The notes under the pieces: generated by a model
What the model saw: the letters and a program-made list of their open reading frames with translations, nothing else
Told to the model about the DNA's origin: nothing
Database searches by the model: none
Translations under genes and position numbers: made by a program
Shown: piece after piece, positions 5,657 through 39,557 of the stretch
How positions within the stretch are numbered: position 1 is the first letter of the stretch
Layout: the number at the start of each line of letters is the position of its first letter
NCBI GenBank assembly: GCA_015494395.1
Contig: WGBG01000011.1
Location: 1-63,361, forward strand
Length of the DNA stretch: 63,361 bases
Direction of reading: 5' to 3'
From: Deltaproteobacteria bacterium
Lineage (GTDB): Bacteria; Desulfobacterota; Dissulfuribacteria; Dissulfuribacterales; QOAL01

Positions 5657-5854
5657 GTACCCTCTTCACACGCTTCAGATCCCGCGACTTTTTCTTCGAC
5701 CATTCATTACATGAACAAAAAAATCATAATACTCGGCGGACATTCGTTGTGGAATTTTTCAGATGGAGGAAGGCACGGAAAAGATTTATACTCGGCCCTA
5801 TGCCAGCTATTACAACGAAGCACCGGACTGCTCTTATTCTGGAAGTTTCCAGCA

Positions 5855-5886
5855 ATCACTTATTGACCTTATCACTTATTGACCTT
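5855..5886. repeat. Perfect 16-bp tandem direct repeat (ATCACTTATTGACCTT x2) in the 289-bp gap inside the glycan locus
   Basis: Read directly: 5855-5870 and 5871-5886 are identical. It lies about 200 nt upstream of the CapD/PseB-like gene start (5656, minus strand). Confidence 0.9.
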
Positions 5887-5945
5887 AAGTCATAAATTGA
5901 GTGATTGAAACTATAGTTACCTGACTGAGCTGAAAACAAAGCCCC

Positions 5946-10093: not shown

Positions 10094-10101
10094 CAGTTAT
10101 T

Positions 10102-10680
10102 TTAATGGAATTGCTGCGCCTTTTTCAATTTTAAGTAATGTTCTACGTCTCTATACTTAAAAACTGAAGCTGGATGCCCTCCAGCAATGGCATACTTTGG
10201 AATATCAGAGACAACACACGAACCAGCCTGAATTATAGCACCCTCACCTATACATACCCCACCTAAAATGATCACACGGCTGCCAATCCATACATTGTCG
10301 TCAATATTTATATCCTTATAGATATAAGTATCATCGTAGGGTATGGCTTTACCTCGATCATAATTATGAATATGCGTTATAAAAAGACAATCCTCTCCGG
10401 AATGAAAATTGTTACCAATTGTAACTCTTCCATTGCCTCTTATAATGAGTCCATTAAAGTTTGTATTGCGCCCCAAAAAAGTATTACGTGTAAAAACACA
10501 CCTGTTATTTACCTTTAACGGCAATGAATAACTGCCAACCTGACTCATTGCCCTCAGTAAAAAGATTTTCCTTTTATATTCGAGAAAAATACGATCAGGT
10601 AGCGAAAAGATTAAATTAATGCACCTAAGTAAAAATCTGTTGCGTTCCATTGGTGATTTTGATGCCGTAAATCCACACAA
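10102..10680 (-). CDS. Left-handed beta-helix (hexapeptide-repeat) acetyltransferase
   Basis: Hexapeptide repeats: VWIGSRVIILGGVCIGEGAIIQAGSCVVSDIPKYAIAGGHPA. It starts 2 nt after the NeuB-family stop. Confidence 0.75.
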   Translation of the reverse strand: MCGFTASKSPMERNRFLLRCINLIFSLPDRIFLEYKRKIFLLRAMSQVGSYSLPLKVNNRCVFTRNTFLGRNTNFNGLIIRGNGRVTIGNNFHSGEDCLFITHIHNYDRGKAIPYDDTYIYKDINIDDNVWIGSRVIILGGVCIGEGAIIQAGSCVVSDIPKYAIAGGHPASVFKYRDVEHYLKLKKAQQFH

Positions 10681-10681
10681 A

Positions 10682-11734
10682 CTAACTTAACATTTCCCAT
10701 GTAATGATCTCATCTTCTTCTATATCATTCTTTACTGTTCTACCAACCACTATGTCAAAAAATGCAGGGGAAATTCCTGTACCGGGTCTTTTTGCTGTCA
10801 TCATCTCCTCGGTCAGAGTGGTGCCAGCTGGTATATTCTTTGTCGCAACCAAACTTCTGCGGGCATATTTTCTAGAATTTTGTTCCCCATCAGTAACAAC
10901 TTTGTCCCGTTTACCCATCATTGCAGCAAAATATCTCTGCATGGAAATAAACTCCCGAACATCATCAGGATCCATAGCATGATAATGATCATTACCAGGT
11001 AATGACTTATCAAGTGTATAGTGTTTTTCCAGAATATCTGCTCCCTTGACCCAGGCAGCCAACATAGACAGACAATTATGAGCTGGAGAAACATGATCTG
11101 ACCAGCCAATTGTTACATCTGGAAATACTGATTTCAAATAGGGAATAGTTTCAAGGTTGGCATGTTCTGCTGGGGTAGGATACTCCAGAACACAATGCAG
11201 CAAAGCAACTTGTTCAGCTCCTGCTTCTGCGATGATTCTTAATGCTTCATCTATCTCTGATATATAGGATGCTCCTGTGGAAAGCAAAATTGGCTTATTT
11301 TTTTTTGCAATTTTGCGTAATAACGGATAATTAGTGATATCCGCAGACGCAACCTTATAAACAGGCATAAATTCATCCAAAAAATCTGCAAAATGCAAAT
11401 CAAAAGGAGTTGAAGCGAAAAGAATTCCTTTTTGCTGGCACCGCCTGGCTAATTTTCTATACTCCTCATCACCGAAATTATCGTGTTTTTTAAACAGTTC
11501 AAATTGACTAGTTGTAGGCTCTTTTTGAGTATCCCAATATGCCGGACTGTATTTGCTAGCCAATGTTTCAGCCTTATAACTTTGAAATTTTATCATTTGA
11601 GCGCCTGCCGCGGCTGCAGCATCTATCATTTCATAAGCTGTATCCAATGACCCTTCATGGTTAACACCGGCTTCAAGTATCAGAAACGGATTGGCACGAT
11701 CAATTTTAATTCCGGCAATTTCGGTCATACGCAT
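10682..11734 (-). CDS. Nonulosonic acid synthase of the NeuB/PseI/LegI family, with a C-terminal SAF domain
   Basis: FLILEAGVNHEGS, KFQSYKAE, LLSTGAS, GWSDH, LEKHYTLDK, and a C-terminal RRSLVATKNIPAGTTLTEEMMTAKRPGTGISP SAF-like segment. Confidence 0.85.
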   Translation of the reverse strand: MRMTEIAGIKIDRANPFLILEAGVNHEGSLDTAYEMIDAAAAAGAQMIKFQSYKAETLASKYSPAYWDTQKEPTTSQFELFKKHDNFGDEEYRKLARRCQQKGILFASTPFDLHFADFLDEFMPVYKVASADITNYPLLRKIAKKNKPILLSTGASYISEIDEALRIIAEAGAEQVALLHCVLEYPTPAEHANLETIPYLKSVFPDVTIGWSDHVSPAHNCLSMLAAWVKGADILEKHYTLDKSLPGNDHYHAMDPDDVREFISMQRYFAAMMGKRDKVVTDGEQNSRKYARRSLVATKNIPAGTTLTEEMMTAKRPGTGISPAFFDIVVGRTVKNDIEEDEIITWEMLS

Positions 11735-11746
11735 ATTCTACTTTCC

Positions 11747-13402
11747 TTATTTAACGGATTTGCCTAAAATAATGTCCCATACCCTATCAATGCCGCTTTT
11801 AAAATCAAAACTGGTTAGTGATTGGTGCATTTTTTTTCTTAAAATTTGTGATCCGATTATTTCTTTAAATGCCTGTTCAAAAACCCCAAATGTCAATAAG
11901 TTTGACAAGCCAAGATTTATAATTCCGAGTTCTTGATTAGCAAACACATGTCTGACTTCCCTTTCATTCTGATTTATAACGATCATTGGGATTCCCATGG
12001 CAGCCAATTCAAAAACTGTACGTCCTCCTGACGTAATAGCTATATCTGCCTCCGCCATGTATTTACTTATAATGTTAGTGTCTGTAATTATCTGGATCTT
12101 ACCATTTAATTTGTCTATATTTTTTTCTAATTGTGATAAATGCTTATAGCCAGGTCCTACAATTACGGTTAGTTCTAAGTCTTTTTTTATCTTTAGAACC
12201 CATTTGATTATCTTCTCAGTCAGGTTGGATGGATCTGTCCCACCAAACAGGAGTAGAATGTTTTTTACCTTCTCCTTAATGTTGATAGTTTTCGCATTAT
12301 AAAATTCGTCACGGAGACAGACATAGTCCGGTCCGGAAAAAATATGGTCACTTTTACGTGACACTTCAGAACCATACATTGCGTTAATAACTGCATCTGC
12401 TACGGTCTGTCCCTGACCCAAATCCTCAAAATTAATCACCCTGAAACCACTTTGTTTTAGAGCTGTTACATAATCAAGATTTGTATCTAGAATATCATTA
12501 ATGACTATATCGGGGTTGCATCTTTTAATTAGGGACACTTCATTTTCAGATGAGGGATCAAATTCTATAATTGGGTAGAAGCGGGACCTAATTTTTTTAA
12601 TGCCTGGGCGAGATTTATTGCTTATTACAAATAAGTGTTCGTGATCTATACGGCTATCAGCCAACATAAGGCATCTATAAATATGGCCCAGTCCTATTTC
12701 ATTATATCCTTCTACACGATAAAGAATCCTCAGTCGGGCCATCTGTTTTTCTACCAGCCACCAGTCAAACCTATCATCAATATCTACAGATTCTATTTTG
12801 TCACATTCTACGATTCCGACATTTCCACCAAATCTTGTTCCATGTCTCAGCTGATCTCGGGTGCAAACAACTATACCGCCTGTTTCCCTGTAATGTTTTG
12901 GTAAATACTGCCTGTTAAGCCTTTTGGAATAGTCGGGAATGGGGTCGCCATTCTCATTTAGCTTCCACCTTAAATGGACATCTTCGGTCACAGAAACAAC
13001 AGTATCTTTCTTCTCATCAATACACTTTTTAACAGCTTTTTGTATGGTTTCAGGTCTTAATAAAGGAGAGGTAGCCTGAAGTGTCACAACAATATCGACA
13101 ATCCTTTTTGTTTGTTTTTCATACTCCTCAACAGCGTCAACAATAACCTCATCCAAACCTACCTCATCACTGGCTAGATGCGCAGACCTTCTAATAATTA
13201 ACGCTCCATATTCTTTACCAATGTATGCAAGTTCTTCGTTATCAGTGGATACAACCACATCTGAAAAAGAATGTGACTCAAAAGCGGCTCTAAGCACATA
13301 GGACATTAATGGTTTGCCATGAAGTAAGCGGGCATTTTTACGAGGTATGCCTTTTGAACCGCCTCGCACGGGAATTATTGCTATAATGTTAAATTCTGCC
13401 AT
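11747..13402 (-). CDS. Fusion protein: N-terminal CMP-nonulosonate cytidylyltransferase (NeuA/PseF-like) plus a C-terminal PseG-like UDP-sugar hydrolase/GT-B domain
   Basis: N-terminus: IAIIPVRGGSKGIPRKN (CTP_transf_3). From about residue 225: RVEGYNEIGLGHIYRCLMLAD and ADIAITSGGRTVFELAAMGIPMIVI (PseG/GT28-C-like). Confidence 0.75.
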   Translation of the reverse strand: MAEFNIIAIIPVRGGSKGIPRKNARLLHGKPLMSYVLRAAFESHSFSDVVVSTDNEELAYIGKEYGALIIRRSAHLASDEVGLDEVIVDAVEEYEKQTKRIVDIVVTLQATSPLLRPETIQKAVKKCIDEKKDTVVSVTEDVHLRWKLNENGDPIPDYSKRLNRQYLPKHYRETGGIVVCTRDQLRHGTRFGGNVGIVECDKIESVDIDDRFDWWLVEKQMARLRILYRVEGYNEIGLGHIYRCLMLADSRIDHEHLFVISNKSRPGIKKIRSRFYPIIEFDPSSENEVSLIKRCNPDIVINDILDTNLDYVTALKQSGFRVINFEDLGQGQTVADAVINAMYGSEVSRKSDHIFSGPDYVCLRDEFYNAKTINIKEKVKNILLLFGGTDPSNLTEKIIKWVLKIKKDLELTVIVGPGYKHLSQLEKNIDKLNGKIQIITDTNIISKYMAEADIAITSGGRTVFELAAMGIPMIVINQNEREVRHVFANQELGIINLGLSNLLTFGVFEQAFKEIIGSQILRKKMHQSLTSFDFKSGIDRVWDIILGKSVK

Positions 13403-15343: not shown

Positions 15344-17686
15344 ATGGGATTTACAAGGCGAAAGTTTTTGAGCATGGCTTTAAAAGCCGGAATTACCGGT
15401 GCGGCCCTGCCTGTCCTCGATTACAGAGAGGCCCTTGGCCTTGGGAGCGGAAAGGGCTTAAACGGGTGCGATGTGCATGTAACAGGCTGCATGTGGTGCC
15501 AGTGCGGATGCAGCATGCTGGTGTATATCCGGGATGGAAAGGCAGTGCATGTTACAGGTAATCCGGACGATCCCCTTACCAGGGGGAGAATATGCATAAA
15601 GCCAATGGGCTCAATTGAGCTTATGAACAGCCCCTTAAGGCTCAAAACCCCACTCAAGAGAACAGGCGGATTGGGAGACTCGGCACAACTCACGGAGGTA
15701 AGCTGGGAAGAGGCGCTTGACGAAATAGCATACCGGTTATCTGAAATAAGAAAAAAACATGGTGGGGAGTCCCTTGGAATCTGGGCATCCGGCAGGAGCG
15801 CAGCTGACGGACGTTATTTAAGCAAGGCCTTTGCAAAACTGTATGGAACCAGGAACTGGGAGAAAACAGGCCCCTTCTGCAACTACTCAGGGAAGCTTGG
15901 CACTGCCACAGTAACAGGGACCAGAAACACGCCCTGGACATTTACAGACGATGATTTTTTCGCTGCTGATACCTACATACTTATTGGTTCAAACCTTGCA
16001 GCAACAAAACCGGTTTATTTCTTCAGGATCAAAGAACGACTGCGCCAGGGCAAATGCCGCCTGATTTGTATTGATCCCAGGAGATCAGAAACCGCACGCC
16101 ACGCAAACGTACATATCAAGATACGACCAGGAACCGATCTCGCCCTTGCACTGGCCCTTGCCAGATACCTTGTTGATCACAACCTTGTAAAAGAAAGCTA
16201 TCTTGAGGAACATGCCATTGGCCATGAAAAATACAGAAAATTTCTCCTTCAGAATGACTTTTCGTTAAAGTGGGCTGAACGCATAACCGGCATATCGGCA
16301 AATGACATAAGCGACCTTGCCAGGACAGTGGCAGGGAAAGGCAACGTAATAATGCTGGATAATGCCGGCATAAGCCACCACGCAAATGCTGTGCACACCC
16401 ACCGGGCATTTGCCATGCTTGCCGCAATGGCGGGCCGTTACGGCAAAAAGGCAAATGGCTTTGCCTGCCTTAACAACGGTGCCGTGAAAACCGGTGGGCT
16501 TCCCCTGCCTGAATCACTGGTACCCAAAGCCCGGGAAGGTCTTGGCAAAAACCCGGTTATGTGGCTTGAGTCCATTGAAAATTCCCATGCTCCTTACAAA
16601 TTAAGGGCTCTCATATCCACAGGAACTCCCTTTGTTCAGTGGCCTGATCAGAAAAGACTCAGACGACTTGCAGGTGCCCTGGAACTTGGCGTGGGCAATG
16701 AGATAGTGCCAAATATCGGAACCAGATTTTTTGATTTTATGCTCCCCGCAGCCTTCTGGATAGAGGCAGGCGGACTTGCCCCTGTATCAGACGAAAGCCG
16801 CCTTGTCTGGTGTCCGAAGCTGGTAGAGCCGCCAGGGGAGGCAAAGCCTGACAGATGGTGGTGGATAGAGCTTGGTAAACGAATGGGCTGGGGGGACGTC
16901 TTTGATGACAGCCTGAAGGATCCGGAGATTCTTCAGGACAAATGTGCAGCATCAAAGGGATATAGTGTCCGGAACTTTACCAGCAGCAAGTATAATTCCC
17001 TGAGGGCACCTGTTATGGTAAGCAGTGGTACAGTAAAAGAGAGGGACTCACTGTTTCTTGACGGAAAATTCAAGACCGCTTCAGGCAAACTTGAGTTCTG
17101 GACAGAATCCCTTGAGGCAAAGTTCAGGGAGATGGGGCTCCCGCTTTTTGCCGGGTTCTACTCTGACCCCCTTGCCTCACCAAAGGATTGGGACACTATT
17201 TTTCCTCAGCCGAGAATGATAAGATCGCCATTTCTCAAGAAAAAAATCATGATGTTTCCCGTGGAACAAAAACCTGGCAAAGTAGATGCCGAAAAGTTCC
17301 CTCTTATTTTGACTACAGGAAAGCCGTGCGAGGCAATATTCGGACATACATGCCACTGGGTAAAGACCTTAAGTGAATTTGCACCGGAACAGGTCTGCTG
17401 GATTCACCCGGACTGCGCCAGGAAGCACAAAATCAAAAATGGAGACATGATAACTGTTGAAAGCCCCAAGGGAAGCTGTGCTGCAAGGGCATTTCTCACT
17501 GTGGACATAAGGAAGGATACGGTCTTTATTCCAAGTACATTCGGAAAGGAGTATCCCTTTTCCAGAACGGAGACTGATTCAGTGAACTTTTTAACGGCCA
17601 TGGATAACAGATGTCCTATTTCCGGACAAATTGCTTTCAAGGGCGTAAGAGTGAATCTTCAACTGCAACAGACTTCTTCCGGATAA
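15344..17686 (+). CDS. Tat-exported molybdopterin (bis-MGD) oxidoreductase catalytic subunit of the DMSO-reductase superfamily
   Basis: Twin-arginine leader MGFTRRKFLSMALKAGITGAALP. N-terminal 4Fe-4S motif CMWCQCGC..RICIKP. C-terminal MopB_CT-like GDMITVESPKGSCAARAFLTVDIRKDTVFIP. Confidence 0.8.
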   Translation: MGFTRRKFLSMALKAGITGAALPVLDYREALGLGSGKGLNGCDVHVTGCMWCQCGCSMLVYIRDGKAVHVTGNPDDPLTRGRICIKPMGSIELMNSPLRLKTPLKRTGGLGDSAQLTEVSWEEALDEIAYRLSEIRKKHGGESLGIWASGRSAADGRYLSKAFAKLYGTRNWEKTGPFCNYSGKLGTATVTGTRNTPWTFTDDDFFAADTYILIGSNLAATKPVYFFRIKERLRQGKCRLICIDPRRSETARHANVHIKIRPGTDLALALALARYLVDHNLVKESYLEEHAIGHEKYRKFLLQNDFSLKWAERITGISANDISDLARTVAGKGNVIMLDNAGISHHANAVHTHRAFAMLAAMAGRYGKKANGFACLNNGAVKTGGLPLPESLVPKAREGLGKNPVMWLESIENSHAPYKLRALISTGTPFVQWPDQKRLRRLAGALELGVGNEIVPNIGTRFFDFMLPAAFWIEAGGLAPVSDESRLVWCPKLVEPPGEAKPDRWWWIELGKRMGWGDVFDDSLKDPEILQDKCAASKGYSVRNFTSSKYNSLRAPVMVSSGTVKERDSLFLDGKFKTASGKLEFWTESLEAKFREMGLPLFAGFYSDPLASPKDWDTIFPQPRMIRSPFLKKKIMMFPVEQKPGKVDAEKFPLILTTGKPCEAIFGHTCHWVKTLSEFAPEQVCWIHPDCARKHKIKNGDMITVESPKGSCAARAFLTVDIRKDTVFIPSTFGKEYPFSRTETDSVNFLTAMDNRCPISGQIAFKGVRVNLQLQQTSSG

Positions 17687-18560
17687 AGTCCATGAAGGCT
17701 GCATTTATCGGAGAAAGGGTCCTGTTCTTCTTTGTTACCATGTAAAAATTCCTTTTTATCTCAATTCCCCTTACTGGAACAGTATGAAGAATACCGCACT
17801 CCACATAGTCCTGAACAGCCCTTTTGGAAATAAAGGCACTCCCCAGTCCAGCCTTAACCCCCTGCCTCACCGCCTCGGTACTGCCCATTTCAATCACTAT
17901 ATTCAACTGGTCCAATGAAATACCGTATTGGGCAAGTGCCCTTTCAATGGTAAGGCGGGTTCCGGACCCCTTCTCCCTCACAATCAACGGCTGATTCAGA
18001 AACTCCTCAATTTCAATCTGACTTTTACCAGCAAGGGGACTGTCGTTGGCAATGACAAAGGTCAGTTCGTCACTGAAACATGGCTCAAAATCAAGCTTTT
18101 TCCTTTCCATGGATGCACCAACAACACCAAGCTCTATCTGCCCACCCAAGACATCCTCAACAACACTCCTGGTATCAGCAATTATAAGTTTAATATCCAC
18201 CATGGGGCGATGTTTTCTGAACTGGCCAAGAATGGCCGGAAGGAGATACTGCCCGGGAATATTGCTGGCACCAACCTCCAAAACCCCGCGTCCTTCTCCA
18301 ACCAGGCCTGATATACTCTCTTCAGCCTGACGGTTAAGCCGAAGAATCTTCTGAACAAAGGGATAGAGGACCTCACCTGCGGCAGTTGGGATCACCTCTC
18401 TGGACGAACGATCAAAGAGCCGTACCCCAAGCTGCTCTTCAAGGGCCTTCAGGTGTGCGCTTACCGTAGGCTGAGTCAGGTATATTGCCTCGGCAGCCTG
18501 ACTCAGGCTCCTCTTGTCCCATACGGCAATAAACACCTGTAACTGTCTGAAATCAAGCAT
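17637..18560 (-). CDS. LysR-family transcriptional regulator
   Basis: HTH LSQAAEAIYLTQPTVSAHLKALEEQLGVRLFDR plus a LysR substrate-binding-type C-terminal region. The 3' end overlaps the convergent Mo-enzyme gene by 50 nt. Confidence 0.85.
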   Translation of the reverse strand: MLDFRQLQVFIAVWDKRSLSQAAEAIYLTQPTVSAHLKALEEQLGVRLFDRSSREVIPTAAGEVLYPFVQKILRLNRQAEESISGLVGEGRGVLEVGASNIPGQYLLPAILGQFRKHRPMVDIKLIIADTRSVVEDVLGGQIELGVVGASMERKKLDFEPCFSDELTFVIANDSPLAGKSQIEIEEFLNQPLIVREKGSGTRLTIERALAQYGISLDQLNIVIEMGSTEAVRQGVKAGLGSAFISKRAVQDYVECGILHTVPVRGIEIKRNFYMVTKKNRTLSPINAAFMDFIRKKSVAVEDSLLRP

Positions 18561-25706: not shown

Positions 25707-26582
25707 TTAATATTCTATTGGCAGCTTCTGCACCTGTGACCTGGTAAATACAGGGCCGTCATGACAGACATAAACCGGCCCTACGCTGCAGTGACCGCAT
25801 ATTCCTATGCCACATTTCATGCGATTTTCAAGGGAGAGATATACCTGATCATCGGTCCATCCAATCTCTTCAAGTGGAGGCATTGTAAATTTGATCATTA
25901 TGGGCGGTCCGCAGATGAGTGCAGCAGCATTATCCGGAGACGGGGCAACCTGGCCTGCAATGGTAGGAACAAAACCAACAAGTCCGTCCCACCCGGGGGC
26001 CTCCCGGTCAATGGTGACATGAATGTCAACATCGTCCCGTGCCTGCCACTTTTCAAGCTCATCTCTGTAGAGCAGCATACCAGGTGTCCTTGCACCGTAA
26101 ATAACGGTTATTTTTCCATAATCCTGGCGATGTTCAAGCATGTAAATAAGTGTTGCCCGAAGTGTGGTAAAGGCAAATCCGCCGGCAATAATAACTATAT
26201 TCTTGCCCTTCAGCTCTGTATCAACAGGAAAACCGTTACCCAAAGGGCCTCTTACGCCTATTCTGTCACCCTCATTCATGTTATGAAGAGCAGTGGTGAC
26301 AACTCCGGCCCTGTTAACAGTAAAGAGCAGATGGCCCTCCTCTGTGGGAGAAGAAGCAATTCCAATAGGTATCTCTCCCTTTCCTGCAAGAGAAAGCATG
26401 GCAAACTGTCCGGCTGTATGTTTCCAGGCCTCCCTGTCCGCCTTGTCTTCCAGTACAATGCGGAATGTCTTGAGATTGCCGTCTTCTGTCTCTACCTTGA
26501 TATTGTCCAGGCGAGCCGGATAAGGCCTGTATGGATTTTTTATGCTTGACATATCATTTATCTCTCTAAAATGCCGTGGCAC
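25707..26582 (-). CDS. FAD/NAD(P)-binding oxidoreductase with a C-terminal 2Fe-2S cluster (FlxA / AsrB / HydG-gamma-like)
   Basis: Ferredoxin-reductase-type layout (GQFAMLS, GPLGNGF, IIAGGFAFTTL) ending in CGIGICGHCSVGPVYVCHDG. Confidence 0.75.
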   Translation of the reverse strand: MPRHFREINDMSSIKNPYRPYPARLDNIKVETEDGNLKTFRIVLEDKADREAWKHTAGQFAMLSLAGKGEIPIGIASSPTEEGHLLFTVNRAGVVTTALHNMNEGDRIGVRGPLGNGFPVDTELKGKNIVIIAGGFAFTTLRATLIYMLEHRQDYGKITVIYGARTPGMLLYRDELEKWQARDDVDIHVTIDREAPGWDGLVGFVPTIAGQVAPSPDNAAALICGPPIMIKFTMPPLEEIGWTDDQVYLSLENRMKCGIGICGHCSVGPVYVCHDGPVFTRSQVQKLPIEY

Positions 26583-26598
26583 CGTTTAATTTTATCCG

Positions 26599-26726
26599 AA
26601 AATAGCTCAAAGCTGAAAGCTCAAGGCTAAAAGTAAAAGAAGCCATGTTTGCTTTCAGCTTCCGACTTTGAGCTTTGAGCTAACTTTAATGTCAGGGGGT
26701 GACAGACCCCATGTCATGAAAGTTTA
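26599..26726 (-). repeat. Family-C structured repeat, copy C2 (inverted relative to C1)
   Basis: See C1. Its last roughly 35 bp supply the final 11 codons (..FHDMGSVTP) and the stop codon of the FlxB-like gene. Confidence 0.8.
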
Positions 26727-27747
26727 GGAGTGATCTCATAACTTCCCTGATATCAATATTAACAGGACAGTCCCTTACACATCTTCCGCATCCTACGCAG
26801 GAAATCGGGCCAAACCTGTCGGGAAAGTACTTCATCTTGTGCATGAAACGGTTCCGTACACGCTGAATCTTCTGCCCTCTTGGATTATGGCCTGATGCGT
26901 GGAGGGTAAATAGAGGAAACATGCATGAGTCCTGACACCTTATCCGTCTCCCCTTTCCGTGAAGGGTCTCATCCTGAATATCAAAACAGTAACAGGTAGG
27001 ACATAAAAATGTACATGCTCCGCAGTTTATGCACCTGTCTGCAAGCTCCTGCCAGAACGGGGCATTGTAAAGCTCCATCAGGTCCTTTTTCCTAAGCTGC
27101 TCTTCAGGATTCCTTATCTCATCAGAACCTGATCTTGCCCTTTCCTCAAGTGCTTCAACTGCAGAGAAGTCCGAATCAGTGACCTCTTTACCAAACGATT
27201 CAGCCAGGGCCAGCAACTCCTCTCCACGCTCAGTCATGGCACGGGCTATATAACGTCCATCAATTTCGGTAAGAGATACATCACAACCTTCTGTTCCCAT
27301 TGGTGATCCGCCTGTTTCAGAACAGAAGCATGTTGAACAGACCTGGCTGCATGTAAGGCCAATAATGGCATTTTTATCCATGTTTGCCTGATAATATGTA
27401 TCTGCCTTGCAGGCCAAGGCATTAAGCCCTATGCTTCTTGCATCACATGGCCTTACACCAAATACCACGTTTTTTCTTCCGTTTTCCTCTGGCTCAGATG
27501 GCAGGCAGCAGTCAGGGTCTGTTGGGACAATAGAAAATTTGAGAAGTGTTTCCGGCTGGGGAAAAAGAAAATTTTTTACTGGTCTTGCCGGAACCCCCGG
27601 TTTTATTTCAGGCATGGAATAATCGGTAAGAAGTGTCCATGTACCCTTTGCCGGACCATCAGAGGCTGGAGCGTAAATATCCCTTTCCCCGGCCATGTTT
27701 GAAAGCCACTGTCCAATTGCGTTTCTGTCAAGTTTCAAGGCCTTCAT
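26692..27747 (-). CDS. 4Fe-4S cluster protein (FlxB / AsrA / hydrogenase-beta-like)
   Basis: CINCGACTFLCPTCYCFD and CVGCGRCVRDCP motifs. The start codon overlaps the upstream stop (TAATG). Confidence 0.65.
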   Translation of the reverse strand: MKALKLDRNAIGQWLSNMAGERDIYAPASDGPAKGTWTLLTDYSMPEIKPGVPARPVKNFLFPQPETLLKFSIVPTDPDCCLPSEPEENGRKNVVFGVRPCDARSIGLNALACKADTYYQANMDKNAIIGLTCSQVCSTCFCSETGGSPMGTEGCDVSLTEIDGRYIARAMTERGEELLALAESFGKEVTDSDFSAVEALEERARSGSDEIRNPEEQLRKKDLMELYNAPFWQELADRCINCGACTFLCPTCYCFDIQDETLHGKGRRIRCQDSCMFPLFTLHASGHNPRGQKIQRVRNRFMHKMKYFPDRFGPISCVGCGRCVRDCPVNIDIREVMRSLLNFHDMGSVTP

Positions 27748-28793
27748 TACCTGTCCCCTCCCTTCTCAGACTTCTCTGTAAGGACAAATCCCTGGGGATC
27801 AGCCGGGTTGTACGTGGTAAGGGGCAGGGGTTCATCAAGTGACATTCCTGCCTCGCTTCCATACATTTCAAGCACGTCCTTGTTGAGTTTTTTGGTAAGA
27901 AGCCTCATTGGAATCCCCACTGGACAAACGCTTTCACACGAGCCGCAGTCAGTGCATCTGCCAGCACAGTGATAGGCCCTGAGTATGTGGAAGAGCATTG
28001 TGTCTGTCTGCTCTGTACTCTTTCCAACCCACTGGGGCCTTGAGTCATCAACAAAACAGGTGGGGCAGTAACAGAGCGGGCATGCGTTACGGCACGCATA
28101 ACATCTTACGCATGAAGAAAATGAATCAGCAAACCAGTTCCAGCGTTCTTCAAGTGATTTGTGCTCTATCTCATCAACCTGGGCAAAACGGTCCTGAACC
28201 TGGCGCTCACCAGCAGGATCACCAATAAGGATGTCGTAAATTACAGGGTCAGGATGTACGCATGTCTTGCAGTTATCCCTTACCACGTCCCATCGGTTAA
28301 GCTCCTGCTCAAACCCCTCACCGCAGATTTTAAGGGAATGATCCTCCTCAATGCAGGTCTGAATATCCCTTTCTCCAACAGCCTCCTTTACCTTGCGGGC
28401 GCTTACCATACCCCTGCTTGGAACACCCACTATTACCACCCTGTCCCGGTCAACCTGATTCTCCTTTATCTGTACAACGATATTCCTTGACCAGCATCCT
28501 GTGGCAAGAATGCCAACCTTTGGGAGAGGGCCTTCAGGGGGAGGATCACCAGGCCGTCTTGGCGGTTCAAATGATTTCAGCAGGGCCGGAAGGTAGTTTG
28601 CAAGGTTCAGAACACAGAAACTGTTCCATACCAGTCTGGAAGCATCCTCCTGCTTTCTGGCCACAAAGGGCCTGACGCTCATGGGAAGGCTTCCGGCCTC
28701 ATATCCAATAAAGGCTGCCACTTCACCTGTTGAAAGAAGCCGTTGAGCCTCGGAGCGTATCTTCTCTGTAATCTTCTCGTTTACTGTTGACAT
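27747..28793 (-). CDS. 4Fe-4S cluster protein (FlxC-like)
   Basis: CVRCYACRNACPLCYCPTCF and CTDCGSCESVCP motifs, in a cluster context with MvhD and HdrA. Confidence 0.65.
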   Translation of the reverse strand: MSTVNEKITEKIRSEAQRLLSTGEVAAFIGYEAGSLPMSVRPFVARKQEDASRLVWNSFCVLNLANYLPALLKSFEPPRRPGDPPPEGPLPKVGILATGCWSRNIVVQIKENQVDRDRVVIVGVPSRGMVSARKVKEAVGERDIQTCIEEDHSLKICGEGFEQELNRWDVVRDNCKTCVHPDPVIYDILIGDPAGERQVQDRFAQVDEIEHKSLEERWNWFADSFSSCVRCYACRNACPLCYCPTCFVDDSRPQWVGKSTEQTDTMLFHILRAYHCAGRCTDCGSCESVCPVGIPMRLLTKKLNKDVLEMYGSEAGMSLDEPLPLTTYNPADPQGFVLTEKSEKGGDR

Positions 28794-28798
28794 GGCCT

Positions 28799-29236
28799 CT
28801 ATCCTATTCTCTTCACAAGACGTGTTGACGGCCCCAGTTTTTTCACCTTGTCAGTTACTTCCTTAACCACCTCTGCAAACTGTTCACCTTCTGAGGCTGA
28901 AACCCAGGAAAAATTCACCCTGCCCGGTTCAATTCCTACAAACTCAAGCAGATTATTAAGCAATGCAAACCTCCGCCTTGCAAACAGGTTTCCACTTATG
29001 TAATGGCAATCTCCAGGATGACAGCCGGAAACCAGCACTCCGTCAGCACCTGAACGCAGGGCGTCAAGTATCATGTTGGCGCTCACCCTTCCGGAACAGG
29101 GCAGGCGGATGATTCGAATATTGGGTGGATACTGAAACCTGCTAACGCCTGCAAGGTCAGCGCCTGCATAACTGCACCAGTTACACAGAAACGCCACTAT
29201 CTTGGGCTCCCAATTTTTTTCAGATGTTGTTCCCAT
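28799..29236 (-). CDS. mvhD: Methyl-viologen-reducing hydrogenase delta subunit-like protein (MvhD/FlxD)
   Basis: FLCNWCSYAGADLAG..RIIRLPCSGRV..VLVSGCHPGDCHY is the canonical MvhD cysteine pattern. All positions are Cys; there is no in-frame TGA. Confidence 0.85.
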   Translation of the reverse strand: MGTTSEKNWEPKIVAFLCNWCSYAGADLAGVSRFQYPPNIRIIRLPCSGRVSANMILDALRSGADGVLVSGCHPGDCHYISGNLFARRRFALLNNLLEFVGIEPGRVNFSWVSASEGEQFAEVVKEVTDKVKKLGPSTRLVKRIG

Positions 29237-29359: not shown

Positions 29360-32300
29360 CTACCAGTTGTCCATTATAGTCTCAAGCTCTGCCATTATCT
29401 GTTCGTTACCCATGTTTTTAAGGGTAATGGCATCGGAACGGCAGCCTGCCACACAGGCCCCGCAACCCTTGCACATTGCCTCGTTGACAACCGCCTTTTC
29501 AGTTGCCTCATCAATGCTCACCGCATTGTACGCACATACTTCTGTACATACGGCACAACCTGTACATTTGCGCGGATCAACCTGGGCTGTGATACTCTCT
29601 GCAGGTATCTCATCCTGGGACAGCACTATGGAGGCCCTTGAGGCTGCAGCCTGGGCCTGGGCTATGGTCTCATCCATGGGCTTTGGATAATGACACAGTC
29701 CAGCCAGGAAAATGCCGTCTGTTGCAAAATCAACCGGCCTGAGCTTCATGTGTGCTTCCATAAGAAAACCGTCTGCCCTGATGGAGCACTTGAAGAATTT
29801 AGCCAAATCATGAACATCAACCTTTGGCCGAACTGCAGTGGCAAGAACAAGCATGTCAGGATTAAGCTCCACCTCTGCATCAATGATGGGGTCCTTCACC
29901 GTTACCTTTATGTTTCCACCCTCTTCAGTAACAGCCGGAAGGTTTTCAAGGTCATACCTTATAAAAATTATTCCCTTTGCCCTTGCCTCCTGATACAGCC
30001 TTTCACGCTGACCGTATGTGCGTATGTCCCTGTAAAGCATGAAAATATCCATATCCGGATTGAGCTCTTTCAGTTTCAGGGCCTGATCTATTGCGTGGGT
30101 ACAACAAACCCTGCTGCAGTAGGGCCTTTCCGGTACACGTGAACCAACACAGTGGATAAACACCGTCTGGTTAATGCCTGAGAGGGAACTGTCTTCTGCA
30201 ATGAACTTCTGATCAAGTTCAAGAAGGGTATGAACATTGGGATTTTTGCCGTACAGGTAGTTCCATCTGCTGTCACTGTCAGGTTTGAATGACCCTGCGC
30301 CAACTGCAATTATTGAGACACCGTGTTTAAGCTCGGTTCCGTCTGTAAGAACAGTTGTAAAATTTCCAACAGAACCCGATACCCCCTTAACGCTCACACC
30401 GCATTTAAGGTCTATGTTTTCATGGGATTTTACAGTATCAACAAGGGAGGCAAGATAATCCTGCACCGGGTTACCCTGCCAAGTGCGGTAAAATTTACGG
30501 GCATGCCCGCCTATGTCGTCCTTTCGTTCCACCAGGGTTACAGGAAATCCCTGATCTGCCAGTGATACCGCTGCTGTCATTCCTGCAACACCTGCACCTA
30601 TAACAAGTGCGGACTTTGTAACCTTTACGCTGTTATACGGAAGAGGCGCATCTCCTCTGACCTTTGCAACCGCAACCCTTATCAGGTCCTTTGCCTTTTC
30701 CGTGGCTGCCTCCGGTTCGTTCTGGTGAACCCATGAATCCTGGTCACGGATATTGGCCATCTCAAACAGGTATTTGTTTATGCCTGCATTTCTCAAGGTT
30801 TCCTGGAAAAGCGGTTCATGGGTTCTGGGCGTGCATGATGCAACAACAACCCTGTTAAGCCCCTCTTTCCTGATGGTCTCCTCCATCTGGTCAATGGTAT
30901 CCTGTGAACATGTAAAGAGGTTGTTTTGCGCAAGAACAACTCCTGGAAGTGTCTTCGCATATTCAGTAACCGCCTCTACATCCACAACGCTGGCAATGTT
31001 AATTCCACAGGAACAGACAAAAACACCTATCCTGGGAGGCTCGGAATATACGTTCTTTTCCGGGGGATATTCCTTTTTCTTTGTATCCTTCCAGCGTGCC
31101 GGGGCGAGTATGCGTCCTGCCTCAAGTGCCGCTGCGCTTGCCTCCATTACAGACTGGGGAATATCCTTTGGCTCAGCCGCTGCACCGCATACAAATACGC
31201 CGTTACGGCTTGTGCTTACCGGTTTGAATGGATCAGTTACAATAAACTTGTCTGCATCAAGGCTAACACCAGCCTTTGCTGCAAGCTCTATTGCCTGCTG
31301 TGGCATCTCAAGCCCTACTGAAAGGACAACAAGATCAAAATCTTCATACCTTATCTCACCGTCCTCACCGGCATATCTGACCCTGAGGTTATCATTCTCT
31401 CCGGATGGAAGCACCGAGTGTATTCGTGCCCTGTGAAATTTTACCCCTTCGGAAGCTGCACGGTTATAGTACTCCTCAAACTCCTTGCCATGTGTACGCA
31501 TGTCCATGAAAAAGATTGAGGCATCAAGGTCACCGCTTTCAGAATGCTCTCTTGCAATAACTGCCTGCTTTATTGCATACATGCAGCACACAGATGAACA
31601 GTAACCGTGACAGGCCCTGTTTATATCCCTTGAACCTACGCACTGGAGCCAGGCAATCTTCTTTGGTTCCTTTCCATCAGAGGGCCTTTCCATGTGGCCC
31701 ATGCATGGACCTGAGGGGCTTAAAAGCCTTTCAAACTCCATGGAGGTCACTACGTTCGGAAGCCTGCCGTAGCCTGTATAGTCCAGTCTTGAAGGGTCAA
31801 AGGGCTTGAATCCCGGGGCCATTATGACAGATCCAATTTCAAGCATATGCTCAGTTGGCTTGTCGTCAAAGTTGATGGCCTTTGAAGGACATACCTTTTC
31901 ACACATGCCGCACCTGCCTGGCTTGTTAAGCCAGATACAGTGCTGGGCATCAATGGCATATTTCAGGGGAACTGCCTGGGGATATTTCAGATATATTGCC
32001 TTGCGCTTTCCAAGGCCCATGTCAAATTCATTAACCACCTTTTTAGGGCACTTTTCAGCACATGTTCCACATGCAATACACTTTTCAGGGTCAACATAAC
32101 GGGGATTCTGCTTTACAACAGCCTTGAATGAACCCGGCTCACCCTCCAGGGAGACAAGTTCTGACAGTGTAAGCAGGTTTATATTAAGATGGCGTCCGCA
32201 TTCAACAAGCTTTGGAGAAAGGATACAGGCGGAACAGTCATTGGTTGGAAATGTCTTGTCAAGCTGTGACATTCCTCCACCAATGGCAGCACTCTTTTCA

Positions 32301-32440
32301 ACAAGATGCACATAGAAACCGCTGTCTGCCAGGTCTAGAGCAGCCTGTACCCCTGCAATTCCGCCTCCAACAACGAGAACGCTGCCGGAAACCTCTGACA
32401 AGGCACCTGTGTTTCCCTGCTGATTTTTTTTATTACTCAT
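29360..32440 (-). CDS. hdrA: HdrA-like FAD/Fe-S oxidoreductase containing two tandem HdrA-type modules
   Basis: Module 1: VVGGGIAGVQAALDLADSG, TNDCSACILSPKLVECGRH, two CxxCxxCxxxCP motifs, WLQCVGSRD..CSSVCCMYAIKQA. Module 2: GVFVCSCGINI, VIGAGVAGMTAAVSLADQG, IHCVGSRV..CSRVCCTHAIDQA, then a C-terminal 2x[4Fe-4S] (CTGCAVCTEVC, CKGCGACVAGC). Confidence 0.85.
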   Translation of the reverse strand: MSNKKNQQGNTGALSEVSGSVLVVGGGIAGVQAALDLADSGFYVHLVEKSAAIGGGMSQLDKTFPTNDCSACILSPKLVECGRHLNINLLTLSELVSLEGEPGSFKAVVKQNPRYVDPEKCIACGTCAEKCPKKVVNEFDMGLGKRKAIYLKYPQAVPLKYAIDAQHCIWLNKPGRCGMCEKVCPSKAINFDDKPTEHMLEIGSVIMAPGFKPFDPSRLDYTGYGRLPNVVTSMEFERLLSPSGPCMGHMERPSDGKEPKKIAWLQCVGSRDINRACHGYCSSVCCMYAIKQAVIAREHSESGDLDASIFFMDMRTHGKEFEEYYNRAASEGVKFHRARIHSVLPSGENDNLRVRYAGEDGEIRYEDFDLVVLSVGLEMPQQAIELAAKAGVSLDADKFIVTDPFKPVSTSRNGVFVCGAAAEPKDIPQSVMEASAAALEAGRILAPARWKDTKKKEYPPEKNVYSEPPRIGVFVCSCGINIASVVDVEAVTEYAKTLPGVVLAQNNLFTCSQDTIDQMEETIRKEGLNRVVVASCTPRTHEPLFQETLRNAGINKYLFEMANIRDQDSWVHQNEPEAATEKAKDLIRVAVAKVRGDAPLPYNSVKVTKSALVIGAGVAGMTAAVSLADQGFPVTLVERKDDIGGHARKFYRTWQGNPVQDYLASLVDTVKSHENIDLKCGVSVKGVSGSVGNFTTVLTDGTELKHGVSIIAVGAGSFKPDSDSRWNYLYGKNPNVHTLLELDQKFIAEDSSLSGINQTVFIHCVGSRVPERPYCSRVCCTHAIDQALKLKELNPDMDIFMLYRDIRTYGQRERLYQEARAKGIIFIRYDLENLPAVTEEGGNIKVTVKDPIIDAEVELNPDMLVLATAVRPKVDVHDLAKFFKCSIRADGFLMEAHMKLRPVDFATDGIFLAGLCHYPKPMDETIAQAQAAASRASIVLSQDEIPAESITAQVDPRKCTGCAVCTEVCAYNAVSIDEATEKAVVNEAMCKGCGACVAGCRSDAITLKNMGNEQIMAELETIMDNW

Positions 32441-32573: not shown

Positions 32574-33806
32574 TTATTTATCGCGTACCAGGGCCTTTTC
32601 AAGCCAGTTCCACAGGTGGGTCGTCTTCCATTTACCCCCAAAGTGGCTGCATATATCAAGAACCTGGGTATGGCAGTTGTGACATGGCGTAATTACTACA
32701 TCTGCACCTGTGGCTGCCAACTGGTCAAATTTGATTTTGCCGTATTTCCTTCTGTTTTCAGAAAAACCGGCCTGAAGGGCGCCGCCTCCTCCCCCACAGC
32801 AGTAGTTATTTGACTTGTTTGGCCAGACCTCTATGAAGTTTTCCTCACCTGCAACCTGTTTGATTACAAATCTCAGGTCATCGGCAACTTCATCTCCAAT
32901 TCCCTGACGTACCAGCTTGCACGGGTCCTGAACGGTAAATTTCAGTCCTTCTGTATTCCAGGATGAATCAACCTTGATTCTCCCCTCCCTTATCCACTTG
33001 GCATAAAGGGTAATAATGCTTACAAATTCAAATTTGTGCGGGATATTAAATCTGCGCAACCCTTCCAGGGTCGCATAGTACATGTGGCCTCACTCAGTGT
33101 TGATATAATATCGCACCCCCAGGGCATCTACTGTTTCAGCCTGGTTCCTGACCGTCTTCTCCCAGTCTTCCGGATCCCCGGAAAACAGGCAATAGTTTGC
33201 TCCGTCCCACCATTTTGAGGAATATGTCCAGTCCACGCCTGCAACATGCAGTATTTTCCATAGCGGTACCATCTCCTCAGGCTCGACTGTTGGTTCCTTG
33301 GCATTCTGATTCAGATAAAATTCAGCACCCTTTTTATCTATTGGTGCCTGGAGATCAGCCCACTCAGGCTCATTTTCCCTTACTTCTTCAAGTACGTCGC
33401 CTACTACCCATACGAAATCATCATTGGGGATGCCGGTGCTGTTTGATTCTTTTTGAAGATCACAGGAACGCTGCAGGTTTTTGGGCCTTTTATCCTTTGG
33501 GCGCATACCCCTGAGCTCATAAACAAAACGTCCTACATTAATCTTCATGGGGCATGCATATTCACATCGCTGGCACATGGTACATGAATAAATCCAGTCA
33601 GTTTCCAGTAACTTTTCATCCTGGCCCAGTACCAGAAGCCTCAAAAACTTTCTGGGATCCATGTCCTCTATGCCAGATGCAGGGCAACCGCTTACGCACA
33701 TTCCACACGTAAGGCAGTAATCAATATGGGCATCAGGCACTGCCTCCTGCATGTGCTGCTTGAGTTTTGTCCTGAGTTTCCTGATTTCTAATTTTTGTTC
33801 AAGCAT
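32574..33806 (-). CDS. HdrD/GlpC-type Fe-S (CCG-domain) oxidoreductase. Proposed as a single 410-codon gene read through an in-frame TGA (candidate selenocysteine). The alternative reading is two coupled genes, HdrC-like 33090..33806 and HdrB-like 32574..33083
   Basis: The upstream ORF has CLTCGMCVSGCP and CTMCQRCEYACP and ends ..YYINTE-TGA (33090-33092). The same frame continues GGC CAC ATG into the downstream ORF, which carries an intact CCG signature: DPC-x39-CCGGGGG-x36-CHNC. A hairpin lies 15 nt after the TGA. Confidence 0.5.
33054..33092 (-). promoter_or_regulatory. Candidate bacterial SECIS: UGA followed by the hairpin GCGACCC-UGGAA-GGGUUGC(GC)
   Basis: mRNA sense reads UGA GGC CAC AUG UAC UAU GCGACCCUGGAAGGGUUGCGC. 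The stem is 7 bp including one G-U pair, the 5-nt loop contains GG, and the loop begins 23 nt after the UGA. Confidence 0.35.
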
Positions 33807-34404: not shown

Positions 34405-36828
<2,424 letters not shown>

Positions 36829-36874
36829 CTAACTGGTTAAAAATCTTGTTTTGCTCGCCCTGATTCAAGTTTTA

Positions 36875-38020
36875 TTACTCTGTTTCAAGTTGCATGGGCA
36901 TTATCAGACCCAAAAATCCCGGATCATCCTCCCCTGTAAGGAGACATGGCGAGTCCGAATTGTTAACCGTAAGAATCACCTCTTTTGAATCCATTACCAT
37001 AAGGGCGTCCATCATATACTTCGCATTAAAGGCAATTTCAAATGGCTCGCCATCGAATGTGACCTCTACAATCTCCCTGGCCTCTCCAAGATTTTTATCA
37101 AGTGATTCTATTTCCATGGCGCCCTGGGCAACAGAGGCCTTTACTCCCCTGAATATATTATCTGAGCATAACACAGAGATTCTTTTTAAGGCGTTATATA
37201 CAAGTTCTTTTTTGAATGTAAAAAACCGCTCCCGTGTTTCCGGAATTATTACCCTATAGTCTGGAAACGTCCCTTCAATCAGCCTGATTACAAGTTGATC
37301 ATCTCCGCTATGGACAAAGCAAAATTTTTCATCTACTCCAAGGCGGGCAACTTCCTTCTCCTCGATTATCTTTTTTATCTCCTGTGCGCCCTTTCGTGGC
37401 AGAATTATCCCCTTGGTAAGGTCAAAATGCTCTGAATCCACCTCTGATTCCATTAAACTTAAACGGTGGCCGTCAGAACTTACCATTCTGATAAGCGATG
37501 TGGTGGTTTCTGGATCAGACCCTTCATTTATCTGCTGTACAAAGATACCTGATAATGCAAATTTTTTCTCATCAAACGATGCTGAAAAAATTGTCTTATC
37601 TATAAGAGACTTGAGTGTATTTGAAGATATATCAGTATAATTTTCAGAGTTAATCTGTCTGAATTTTGGAAAATCGTCCGGAGGCAGGCCTCCAATCTTG
37701 TATTCCGCTTTCTCACCAGCGCCTATTGTAATCCAGTAATTGTCATCTTCCTTAAATTCGATCTCCTGAGAAGGAAAGTCCCTTATAATCTCATAGAGCT
37801 TTCGTGAATTAACCGTTACAGCTCCCTGATGCAGTATTTTGCAGGGTATTTTTCCCCGATAGCTGATTTCAAGATCTGTAGCTTCCAGAAACAAATTTTC
37901 GTCATCAGTATAAATAAAGACGTTATTGATTATATTCATGATCGTCTTTTTATCTACAATAGACTGCACTTTCTGGAGTGGCCCAACTATCTTTTCCCTA
38001 TCAACTACAACATGAAGCAT
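36875..38020 (-). CDS. dnaN: DNA polymerase III beta subunit (sliding clamp)
   Basis: 381 aa with a three-domain clamp pattern and a C-terminal ..GLIMPMQLE typical of DnaN. It lies immediately upstream of gyrB. Confidence 0.9.
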   Translation of the reverse strand: MLHVVVDREKIVGPLQKVQSIVDKKTIMNIINNVFIYTDDENLFLEATDLEISYRGKIPCKILHQGAVTVNSRKLYEIIRDFPSQEIEFKEDDNYWITIGAGEKAEYKIGGLPPDDFPKFRQINSENYTDISSNTLKSLIDKTIFSASFDEKKFALSGIFVQQINEGSDPETTTSLIRMVSSDGHRLSLMESEVDSEHFDLTKGIILPRKGAQEIKKIIEEKEVARLGVDEKFCFVHSGDDQLVIRLIEGTFPDYRVIIPETRERFFTFKKELVYNALKRISVLCSDNIFRGVKASVAQGAMEIESLDKNLGEAREIVEVTFDGEPFEIAFNAKYMMDALMVMDSKEVILTVNNSDSPCLLTGEDDPGFLGLIMPMQLETE

Positions 38021-38423: not shown

Positions 38424-39557
38424 ATGGAACTATCTGCAATAATAAAAAACAAAATAGAAAAATCAGGGCCTATTCCATTTCGGGAATTCATGTCTATAGC
38501 CTTGTATCACGATGAGTTTGGGTATTACACAAAATCCAGGTTTCCTGCAGGAGGCAGGGGAGATTTTGTTACTTCGCCTCATACATCCAGGCTTTTTGGA
38601 GCCTTACTATGTAATCAGATAGAGGAATTTTTCAAATATACCTCGTCGTCTGATTTTCAAATAGTAGAGATGGGAGCCGGAGCTGGTTATCTGGCAGCGG
38701 ATATTTTGAGGCATGCTAATGAATGTAGTGCCCTTTCAGAAATCAAATATGTCATAGTTGAGCCCCATTCTGAAACAAGGGCTATTCAGAGATCAAATCT
38801 CGAAAATTTGCCTTCAAAGGTGGAATGGGTGGATGGTTTAGATAATCTTGAAGAGTTCCGTGGTTGCTTTATATCTAATGAGCTAGTGGATTCTTTTCCA
38901 GTCCATCTGGTTCATAAGGAAAATAATGATTGGTTTGAGGTTTATGTGGATCTGGATTCGCAAGGGGCATTTGTCGATATTTTAAATCCTATCCTTGATC
39001 ATGATCTTAATAATTACCTGGTCACGTTACCGTTTCAAGTTCCATCGCCGTATCGAACTGAGATTAATCTTGCTGCAAAAAATTGGATCAGGCAGGTATC
39101 AGGTGTCTTAAAAAAGGGATTCGTTTTGACCATTGATTATGGTTACTCTGCTGATAACTTTTTCGCTCCTCATAGGAATAGAGGCACTCTGTTGGGTTAC
39201 TATTCTCAGAATGTGGTTGAAAATGTGCTTCAGAACCCTGGTTTTATCGACATCACATCCCATGTAAATTTCACAGACTTGTGCAGATGGGGAAAGGAGT
39301 ACGGGCTTGAGCCCATAGGTTTTGCGCCTCAGTATGCCTTTTTGGGAGGACTGGATTTTGAGGCTACTTTCAGGAAAATTTATAAGCGGGTTGACCCGTT
39401 TTCGACTGAAATGGCAGCGGTTAAGATGTTAATTTTACCCCAGGGCATGGGCGAGAGTCATCAGGTTTTAGTTCAATCCAAAAATATAAATTCTTCTGAT
39501 TTAAAACTCTCCGGCTTTAATTTCGTAAACAGAGTTAATTCTATTTGTGAGTCTTAA
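38424..39557 (+). CDS. Class I SAM-dependent methyltransferase of the MidA/NDUFAF7 (DUF185) family
   Basis: PIPFREFMSIALYHDEFGYYT N-terminus, FVTSPH, IVEMGAGAGYLAADIL SAM motif, and ISNELVDSFPVH. Confidence 0.75.
   Translation: MELSAIIKNKIEKSGPIPFREFMSIALYHDEFGYYTKSRFPAGGRGDFVTSPHTSRLFGALLCNQIEEFFKYTSSSDFQIVEMGAGAGYLAADILRHANECSALSEIKYVIVEPHSETRAIQRSNLENLPSKVEWVDGLDNLEEFRGCFISNELVDSFPVHLVHKENNDWFEVYVDLDSQGAFVDILNPILDHDLNNYLVTLPFQVPSPYRTEINLAAKNWIRQVSGVLKKGFVLTIDYGYSADNFFAPHRNRGTLLGYYSQNVVENVLQNPGFIDITSHVNFTDLCRWGKEYGLEPIGFAPQYAFLGGLDFEATFRKIYKRVDPFSTEMAAVKMLILPQGMGESHQVLVQSKNINSSDLKLSGFNFVNRVNSICES

Follow-up and report, generated by a model that had tools for sequence, protein, structure and literature searches.

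A predicted selenocysteine codon inside a single HdrD-like gene annotated as two in an uncultured member of the Desulfobacterota

The window considered here is the whole of a 63,361-nucleotide stretch of DNA, contig WGBG01000011.1 of assembly GCA_015494395.1, which is assigned to the Dissulfuribacterales lineage of the Desulfobacterota. Its minus strand harbours two consecutive open reading frames (ORFs) that resemble parts of Hdr-type iron-sulfur proteins and that are separated by a TGA codon. The upstream ORF, 33806..33090, spans 238 codons, carries two ferredoxin motifs of the CxxCxxCxxxCP type and terminates with ...YYINTE followed by the TGA; the listed end at 33090 counts the stop codon, so that the TGA itself occupies 33092-33090. 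Past the TGA the same frame proceeds through GGC CAC ATG (33089-33081) and into a second minus-strand ORF of 169 codons, 33083..32574. When the two are joined, the product is 410 codons long, contains one in-frame TGA only, at residue 239, and closes with a TAA stop. With U standing for selenocysteine (Sec), its cysteines are spaced as C206-x32-U239 and as C296-x39-C336C337G-x36-C375xxC378. The ORFs, the joined length of 410 codons, these motif spacings and the position of a hairpin downstream of the UGA had all been described in an earlier sequence-only reading, and every one of them proved exact when the sequence was read again.

The interpretation favoured here, with little residual doubt, is that 33806-32574 constitutes one gene (32574..33806, minus strand, 410 codons plus TAA) for a cytoplasmic disulfide reductase, an HdrD-like iron-sulfur protein of 410 residues in which residue 239 is Sec. 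The predicted protein is GlpC-like, or Fe-S oxidoreductase-like, and comprises two [4Fe-4S] motifs, a degenerate N-terminal CCG domain containing Sec239 and a complete C-terminal CCG domain. The UGA (33090..33092, minus strand), set in the motif NTE-U-GH, almost certainly encodes Sec, as judged from the presence of Cys in homologues, from loci with TGA or TGY at the same codon and from the published UGH motif. Nowhere else in the window does an in-frame TGA lie between two ORFs that are both coding. Three further in-frame-TGA candidates in the window were all antisense to real genes and were rejected.

Cysteine codons, UGA and a conserved hairpin

Relatives were sought with the joined sequence, Cys being placed at residue 239, in a database of 5.8 billion proteins. 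Thousands were recovered. Among the best 120 every protein is a single chain of 391-532 aa, mostly 405-450 aa, which covers 92-100% of the query and is 50-73% identical to it. In one stretch that crosses the junction, the joined sequence likewise matches the NCBIfam models for HmcF (residues 4-392), TmcB (24-394) and DsrK. The split halves are stored as separate database proteins, in one cluster of 22 near-identical sequences of ~238 aa and another of 48 sequences of 168-177 aa. As gene callers split the TGA forms, protein databases are short of them, and the codon was therefore surveyed in DNA, in 80 related loci drawn from one genome per species and nearly all belonging to Desulfobacterota.

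The sequence-only reading had asked whether a Cys or a TGA aligns at this site in homologues, and had counted orthologues that consistently form two separate proteins with TAA or TAG stops as evidence against Sec. Cys fills the residue-239 column in 120/120 of the best full-length homologues, within an invariant NTE-C-GH motif. In the DNA survey the aligned codon is TGA in 60 of the 80 loci, TGC in 16 and TGT in 4; TAA, TAG and other sense codons were looked for in the same 80 genomes and account for none. The motif TE[C/U]GH is invariant throughout the 120 homologues and the 80 loci. The TGA form occurs in metagenome-assembled genomes (MAGs) and also in isolates, namely Desulfoprunum benzoelyticum DSM 28570 and Desulforhopalus singaporensis DSM 12130. 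One homologue, P0028 (EMS81429.1, Desulfotignum phosphitoxidans), is named 'oxidoreductase, selenocysteine-containing' but has Cys at NTECGH and no U; it was rejected as support for Sec, and its name was apparently inherited from a relative that does contain Sec.

The second line of evidence is a hairpin, GCGACCC/UGGAA/GGGUUGC, which lies at 33074-33056 with its first base 15 nt past the UGA, inside the coding sequence (codons A-T-L-E-G-L). As a bacterial selenocysteine insertion sequence (SECIS) hairpin (33056..33074, minus strand) it has an 8-bp stem, in which 33074-33067 pair with 33063-33056, an apical loop GGA at 33066-33064 and a UGA-to-loop distance of 23 nt. Its fold energy is -12.6 kcal/mol (z = -4.4), and 0/200 shuffled sequences are as stable. 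The published rules for bacterial SECIS elements (bSECISearch consensus, PMC13188914) call for a loop of 3-9 nt, an upper stem of 4-16 bp, G in the first two loop positions, a UGA-to-loop spacing of 16-37 nt and a minimum free energy of -7.5 kcal/mol or lower. The loop, stem, spacing and energy of the window hairpin fall within all of these constraints; like the consensus element it is a small hairpin internal to the ORF whose loop starts with G-G, and no notable difference was seen.

The same hairpin recurs, in register, in 58/58 distinct TGA loci, with G-G as the first two loop bases. With the stem set at 8 bp and the loop at 3 nt, standard pairs make up 96.1% of cells across these loci, and compensatory double changes affect four of the eight pairs (66 cells), the closing pair being for example G-C, U-A or A-U. 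Neither the observed pairing nor the covariation was matched in any of 500 column shuffles, and sliding the 3' arm gave pairing of 17-47%. Compensation is achieved through amino-acid changes (Thr/Val/Ile, Leu/Arg/Gln, Glu/Ala) as well as through synonymous choices in Gly and Leu codons, which argues for selection on RNA pairing in addition to that on the encoded protein. When these columns are examined in the 20 Cys loci, 46.9% of cells are paired, which is background, at the level of the slid controls.

A covariance model restricted to the hairpin was built from 48 TGA loci of distant clades (≤62% protein identity). Run on both strands of the window, it finds one significant site, 33053-33077 (21.1 bits, E = 0.004), the next scoring 11.9 bits. 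Of the held-out loci, it recognizes all 9 TGA loci from the clade of the window, each where it was expected, and 0/20 Cys loci. Since the window contains a single in-frame-TGA pair and a single site for the model, the features go beyond chance. The earlier suggestion that the hairpin lies within the bacterial SECIS range is thus borne out both by the geometry rules and by the match to the model, and the proposal of Sec at the UGA is sustained by the uniform Cys of the homologues, by the restriction of the codon to TGA, TGC and TGT and by a hairpin specific to TGA. A scan of the window against Rfam, which is without a bacterial SECIS family, returned only two tRNAs and nothing relevant at the hairpin.

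When the ribosome reaches the UGA at 33092-33090, the hairpin at 33074-33056 would be bound by SelB-GTP carrying Sec-tRNA(Sec), and Sec would be inserted with no release of the chain. The continuity of the gene, the pairing of Sec with Cys and the SECIS hairpin are results of this analysis; the dependence of recoding on SelB would follow from the standard bacterial mechanism.

Among the loci surveyed, L009:4697-4756, from a Desulfocapsaceae MAG, carries TGC (Cys) in the midst of close TGA relatives (L008, L010-L012). It keeps a recognisable but broken hairpin (GCGACCACCGAGGGGTTG), which is missed by the covariance model. It has the appearance of a locus that recently changed from Sec to Cys and whose SECIS is now decaying.

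Domain architecture and the place of residue 239

In the joined protein, Pfam recognizes Fer4_17 and Fer4_8 (E ~3e-10) and the CCG domain PF02754 (E = 7.5e-11, residues 291-382), the latter at the C-terminal side only. The Cys residues of the ferredoxin motifs and of the CCG motif are invariant in the homologue alignment. Structural comparisons were based on the AlphaFold model of P0001, a Cys homologue 72% identical to the joined protein. The model is a single folded chain (pTM 0.86), in which the Cys equivalent to residue 239 sits between a strand (234-237) and a helix (241-253), blocks with pLDDT of 86-90. As this Cys lies inside a well-predicted domain, a split at that point would cut the fold.

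The best structural match of the model is EtfD 9OJN, over the whole chain (TMq 0.70), followed by methanogen HdrB over the CCG half, and the N-terminal part matches HdrC by sequence. The EtfD/HdrB fold and the HdrC match together argue for an HdrD-type fusion of HdrC-like and HdrB-like parts. On the strength of the model, methanogen HdrBC and mycobacterial EtfD (PDB 5ODC, 8RVU, 9OJN) would share the fold of the window protein. HdrB has two noncubane clusters and two complete five-Cys CCG motifs, the canonical pattern of HdrB and HdrD, whereas C206 and U239 are all that is left in the N-terminal CCG-like domain of the window protein, where both the CC doublet and the CxxC are missing. EtfD contains a linear [3Fe-4S] cluster and a noncubane cluster. 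The window protein has no membrane domain.

Residue 239 had previously been placed at the CC doublet of the first CCG motif. This assignment is probably wrong; the more plausible arrangement is that U239 represents the first Cys of CxxC in a degenerate CCG domain and C206 the CC doublet. Three lines of evidence, each of them weak, point the same way. Local matches set NYC206 against NYCC336/337 and INTE-U-GH against ITP-C375-HNC, and an internal-repeat comparison with hhalign pairs C206 and U239 likewise, at a weak E = 0.12. The strand-Cys-helix topology is alike in both domains of the P0001 model. With solved HdrB, alignment is significant only for the C-terminal CCG domain, and the pairing of NTECGH with MTEC-NGC is sub-threshold. 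A sequence match to EtfD 9OJN was obtained only with the ferredoxin domain included, and it gave no residue-level mapping of U239. The displacement of U239 by one motif element leaves the main conclusion unaffected.

Alternative explanations of the in-frame TGA

The sequence-only reading had cautioned that a UGAGG ahead of the ATG could act as a Shine-Dalgarno sequence. The locus would then consist of two translationally coupled genes, one for an HdrC-like ferredoxin subunit that ends at the TGA and one for an HdrB-like CCG subunit that starts from the ATG at 33083. The UGAGG is present as described: in the window an ATG lies two codons past the TGA, with GAGG ahead of it. Gene callers also give two proteins, both halves form separate entries in public databases, and HdrC and HdrB are separate subunits in methanogens. 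At the level of the family, however, the coupling fails, and two genes are very improbable. The ATG is present in 11 of the 59 distinct TGA loci and missing from the other 48, and in 32/59 the first ATG lies 89 codons downstream. Codons +1 and +2 always specify Gly-His while their third base varies (GGC/GGT/GGG/GGA; CAC/CAT), and a constant dipeptide with synonymous variation is the signature of translated sequence. The GAGG forms part of the Glu-Sec-Gly codons, and its counterpart, GAR-TGY-GG, is found in the Cys loci too. A boundary at this point would fall inside a folded domain and deprive the protein of an invariant Cys; moreover, the stop is never TAA or TAG, and the hairpin covaries only with TGA.

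Still less credible is a nonsense mutation or a miscall in an HdrD-like gene, which would make the locus a pseudogene or an assembly error. The source is an uncultured MAG, and a change from TGC or TGT to TGA needs one base only. The identical 238-aa ORF, however, ends at the TGA on 4 contigs from separate assemblies, so that the TGA is not a sequencing error, and 22 near-identical 238-aa entries are found in the database; assembly GCA_027041665.1 contains the locus in identical form. The TGA stands at the same codon in 60 species, isolates included, with the downstream frame and the hairpin conserved, and its recurrence effectively refutes this explanation. Equally remote is another form of UGA recoding, be it genome-wide reassignment to Trp or Gly or non-specific read-through: some uncultured bacterial lineages do reassign UGA, but TGA ends 14/45 of the other ORFs in the window (TAA or TAG the remaining 31/45), with lengths normal under table 11, and is therefore a normal stop elsewhere with no global reassignment, no second case of ORFs linked through an in-frame TGA occurs in the window, homologues invariably align a Cys here and never Trp or Gly, and a dedicated SECIS-type hairpin stands beside the codon.

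Several points weigh against the reading as one selenoprotein gene and its proposed function. Within the clade to which the window belongs, the UGA is indeed followed by an ATG that has GAGG ahead of it, and some independent initiation of the C-terminal part may take place there, for example when selenium is scarce. Neither tRNA-Sec nor selA, selB or selD was found in the 63-kb window by ARAGORN, which returned tRNA-Ser and tRNA-Met only, or by NCBIfam scans of ~40 ORFs. The placement of U239 in an ancestral CCG motif leans on sub-threshold alignments and is tentative, and the catalytic role and the substrate discussed below are inferred by analogy.

The only local pointer to selenium use is a hint from a LysR regulator at 17637-18560 (minus strand), which scores 311 bits, against a cut-off of 250, with NF040786, 'selenium metabolism-associated LysR family transcriptional regulator'. 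This gene is convergent with, and overlaps by ~50 nt, the gene for a 780-aa molybdopterin oxidoreductase (15344-17686, plus strand), whose likeness to FdhA, NasC and PhsA is confined to the N-terminal half.

Known relatives, neighbouring genes and possible function

Taken as a selenoprotein gene, the window gene is a further, unannotated member of a family that has already been described. 'Fe-S oxidoreductase (GlpC)' was listed among bacterial selenoprotein families in 2006, together with glpC-hdrA-frhD operons of Deltaproteobacteria (Zhang et al. 2006, PMC1794560), and a 2026 review assigns the Fe-S oxidoreductase-like (GlpC) family to PTHR43551 with the Sec motif UGH (PMC13188914). The window protein would share with this family the U-G-H motif, one Sec per protein, a Desulfobacterota host and hdrA-type and mvhD/frhD neighbours. 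The published five-gene GlpC operon includes FrhG/FrhA hydrogenase subunits, whereas the window has an HdrL double HdrA and NAD(P)H-module genes, and its MvhD and HdrL copies are Cys forms. The genome of Desulfobacterium autotrophicum HRM2 is reported to contain a Sec-containing hdrD4, plus HdrL and MvhD loci (PMC2702500); compared by description only, HdrD4 and the predicted window protein are both soluble Sec HdrD-type proteins with HdrC-like and HdrB-like domains and a linkage to HdrL/MvhD. The statement in the sequence-only reading that GlpC/Hdr-type selenoproteins recur in Deltaproteobacteria and are often split by annotation agrees with these reports (PMC1794560, PMC2702500, PMC13188914) and with the split database entries.

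A second group of relatives comprises DsrK, HmcF and TmcB, which have one CCG motif and a strictly conserved T/GECGH Cys. This Cys is a survivor of the ligands of the missing cluster, and the reduction of disulfides or trisulfides is proposed to depend on it (PMC10861901). In the window protein, too, two [4Fe-4S] motifs are combined with one complete CCG motif and the TE-C/U-GH signature; the protein matches the models of these relatives end to end, with Sec predicted in place of the conserved Cys. With the three models its scores are 186 versus 750, 179 versus 735 and 124 versus 400 bits (score versus NCBIfam equivalog cut-off). Such scores lie far below the cut-offs, and the protein is therefore not an orthologue of HmcF, TmcB or DsrK. 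No membrane partner of the DsrM/HmcE type (cytochrome b) is encoded near the HdrD-like gene; the neighbours are soluble HdrL, MvhD and NAD(P)H-module proteins.

The gene immediately downstream (29360..32440, minus strand) encodes an HdrL-type flavo-iron-sulfur protein of 1026 aa with two HdrA-like modules, which scores 996 bits with the HdrA2 model, below the cut-off of 1100. This protein is likely to be the redox partner of the HdrD-like protein; in at least 59 of 82 loci the HdrD-like gene has an HdrL homologue as its neighbour. In some loci HdrL was recovered by tblastn in multiple pieces; these were rejected as TGA splits, because they reflect the internal duplication of the HdrA module or an insertion of ~1.35 kb and contain no stop codons. 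In L049, L055, L075 and L079 the ~1.35 kb of extra in-frame sequence lies between parts matching residues 1-166 and 164 onward of the window HdrL, and is probably an inserted domain.

Between hdrL and a 348-aa Fer4 gene is the gene for an MvhD-like (FlpD) iron-sulfur subunit of 145 aa (28799..29236, minus strand; PF02662, 190 bits), a Cys form with CNWCSY. MvhD/FrhD is itself a known selenoprotein family. The 348-aa Fer4 protein is encoded together with a 351-aa HydB/AsrA-like Fe-S protein and a 291-aa HydG/AsrB-like FAD/NAD(P)-binding [2Fe-2S] protein (25707..28793, minus strand). These names express family resemblance only, as all matches are below equivalog cut-offs; the three proteins together resemble a module for NAD(P)H input. 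In close loci the 348-aa gene keeps its syntenic position. In the window, the HydG/AsrB-like gene is followed by one for a nitronate monooxygenase-like protein. On the other side, the selenoprotein gene lies directly downstream of dnaN and gyrB on the same strand (34405-38020, minus strand); dnaA is not adjacent to the pair. The next gene upstream of dnaN and gyrB is divergent and encodes a Methyltransf_28 protein (38424-39557, plus strand).

By analogy with Hdr-type complexes already described, the operon most likely specifies an NAD(P)H-linked, possibly flavin-bifurcating reductase whose HdrD-like subunit would perform thiol/disulfide chemistry. The electrons would be supplied by the HdrL-MvhD flavo-iron-sulfur module encoded alongside it and by the NAD(P)H-binding module. 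Sec239 would occupy the T/GE-C-GH position, that of the one Cys which DsrK, HmcF and TmcB have kept from the lost second CCG cluster, and, located next to the one noncubane [4Fe-4S] cluster that the C-terminal CCG domain carries, would attack the disulfide or trisulfide of a substrate that could be DsrC-like. A broader proposal can be put forward tentatively, and may well prove wrong: that the repeated natural swapping between Sec and Cys at TE-C/U-GH, with Sec in 60 and Cys in 20 of the species sampled, offers independent evolutionary evidence on the mechanism and marks the redox-active nucleophile of single-CCG reductases of the HdrD/DsrK/HmcF/TmcB type, and that the conserved HdrD(Sec)-HdrL-MvhD-NAD(P)H-module operon represents an uncharacterised, possibly electron-bifurcating NAD(P)H-linked disulfide/trisulfide reductase of Desulfobacterota.

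The value of the finding is mainly one of annotation correction, the two-gene annotation in public records being wrong. The TGA form is present in three quarters of the related species genomes sampled; given such frequency and the split records, gene catalogues and metabolic models would under-count both an intact Hdr-type reductase and selenium dependence in sulfate reducers and syntrophs. A Sec located exactly on the Cys for which a catalytic role in DsrK, HmcF and TmcB was recently put forward would also be a pointer for disulfide/trisulfide reduction by single-cluster CCG proteins.

Two further regions of the window were noted. A sugar-nucleotide cluster at 2398-13402 (minus strand) includes dTDP-glucose dehydratase-like, UDP-sulfoquinovose synthase-like, PseB-like, NeuB-like and PseG/PseF-fusion-like genes, a content that suggests biosynthesis of a nonulosonic (pseudaminic or legionaminic-type) acid for a surface glycan. 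The gene at 58305-62009 (minus strand) encodes 1234 aa that include repeats of the parallel beta-helix type and a segment weakly resembling lacto-N-biosidase; its large product is probably secreted or located at the cell surface.

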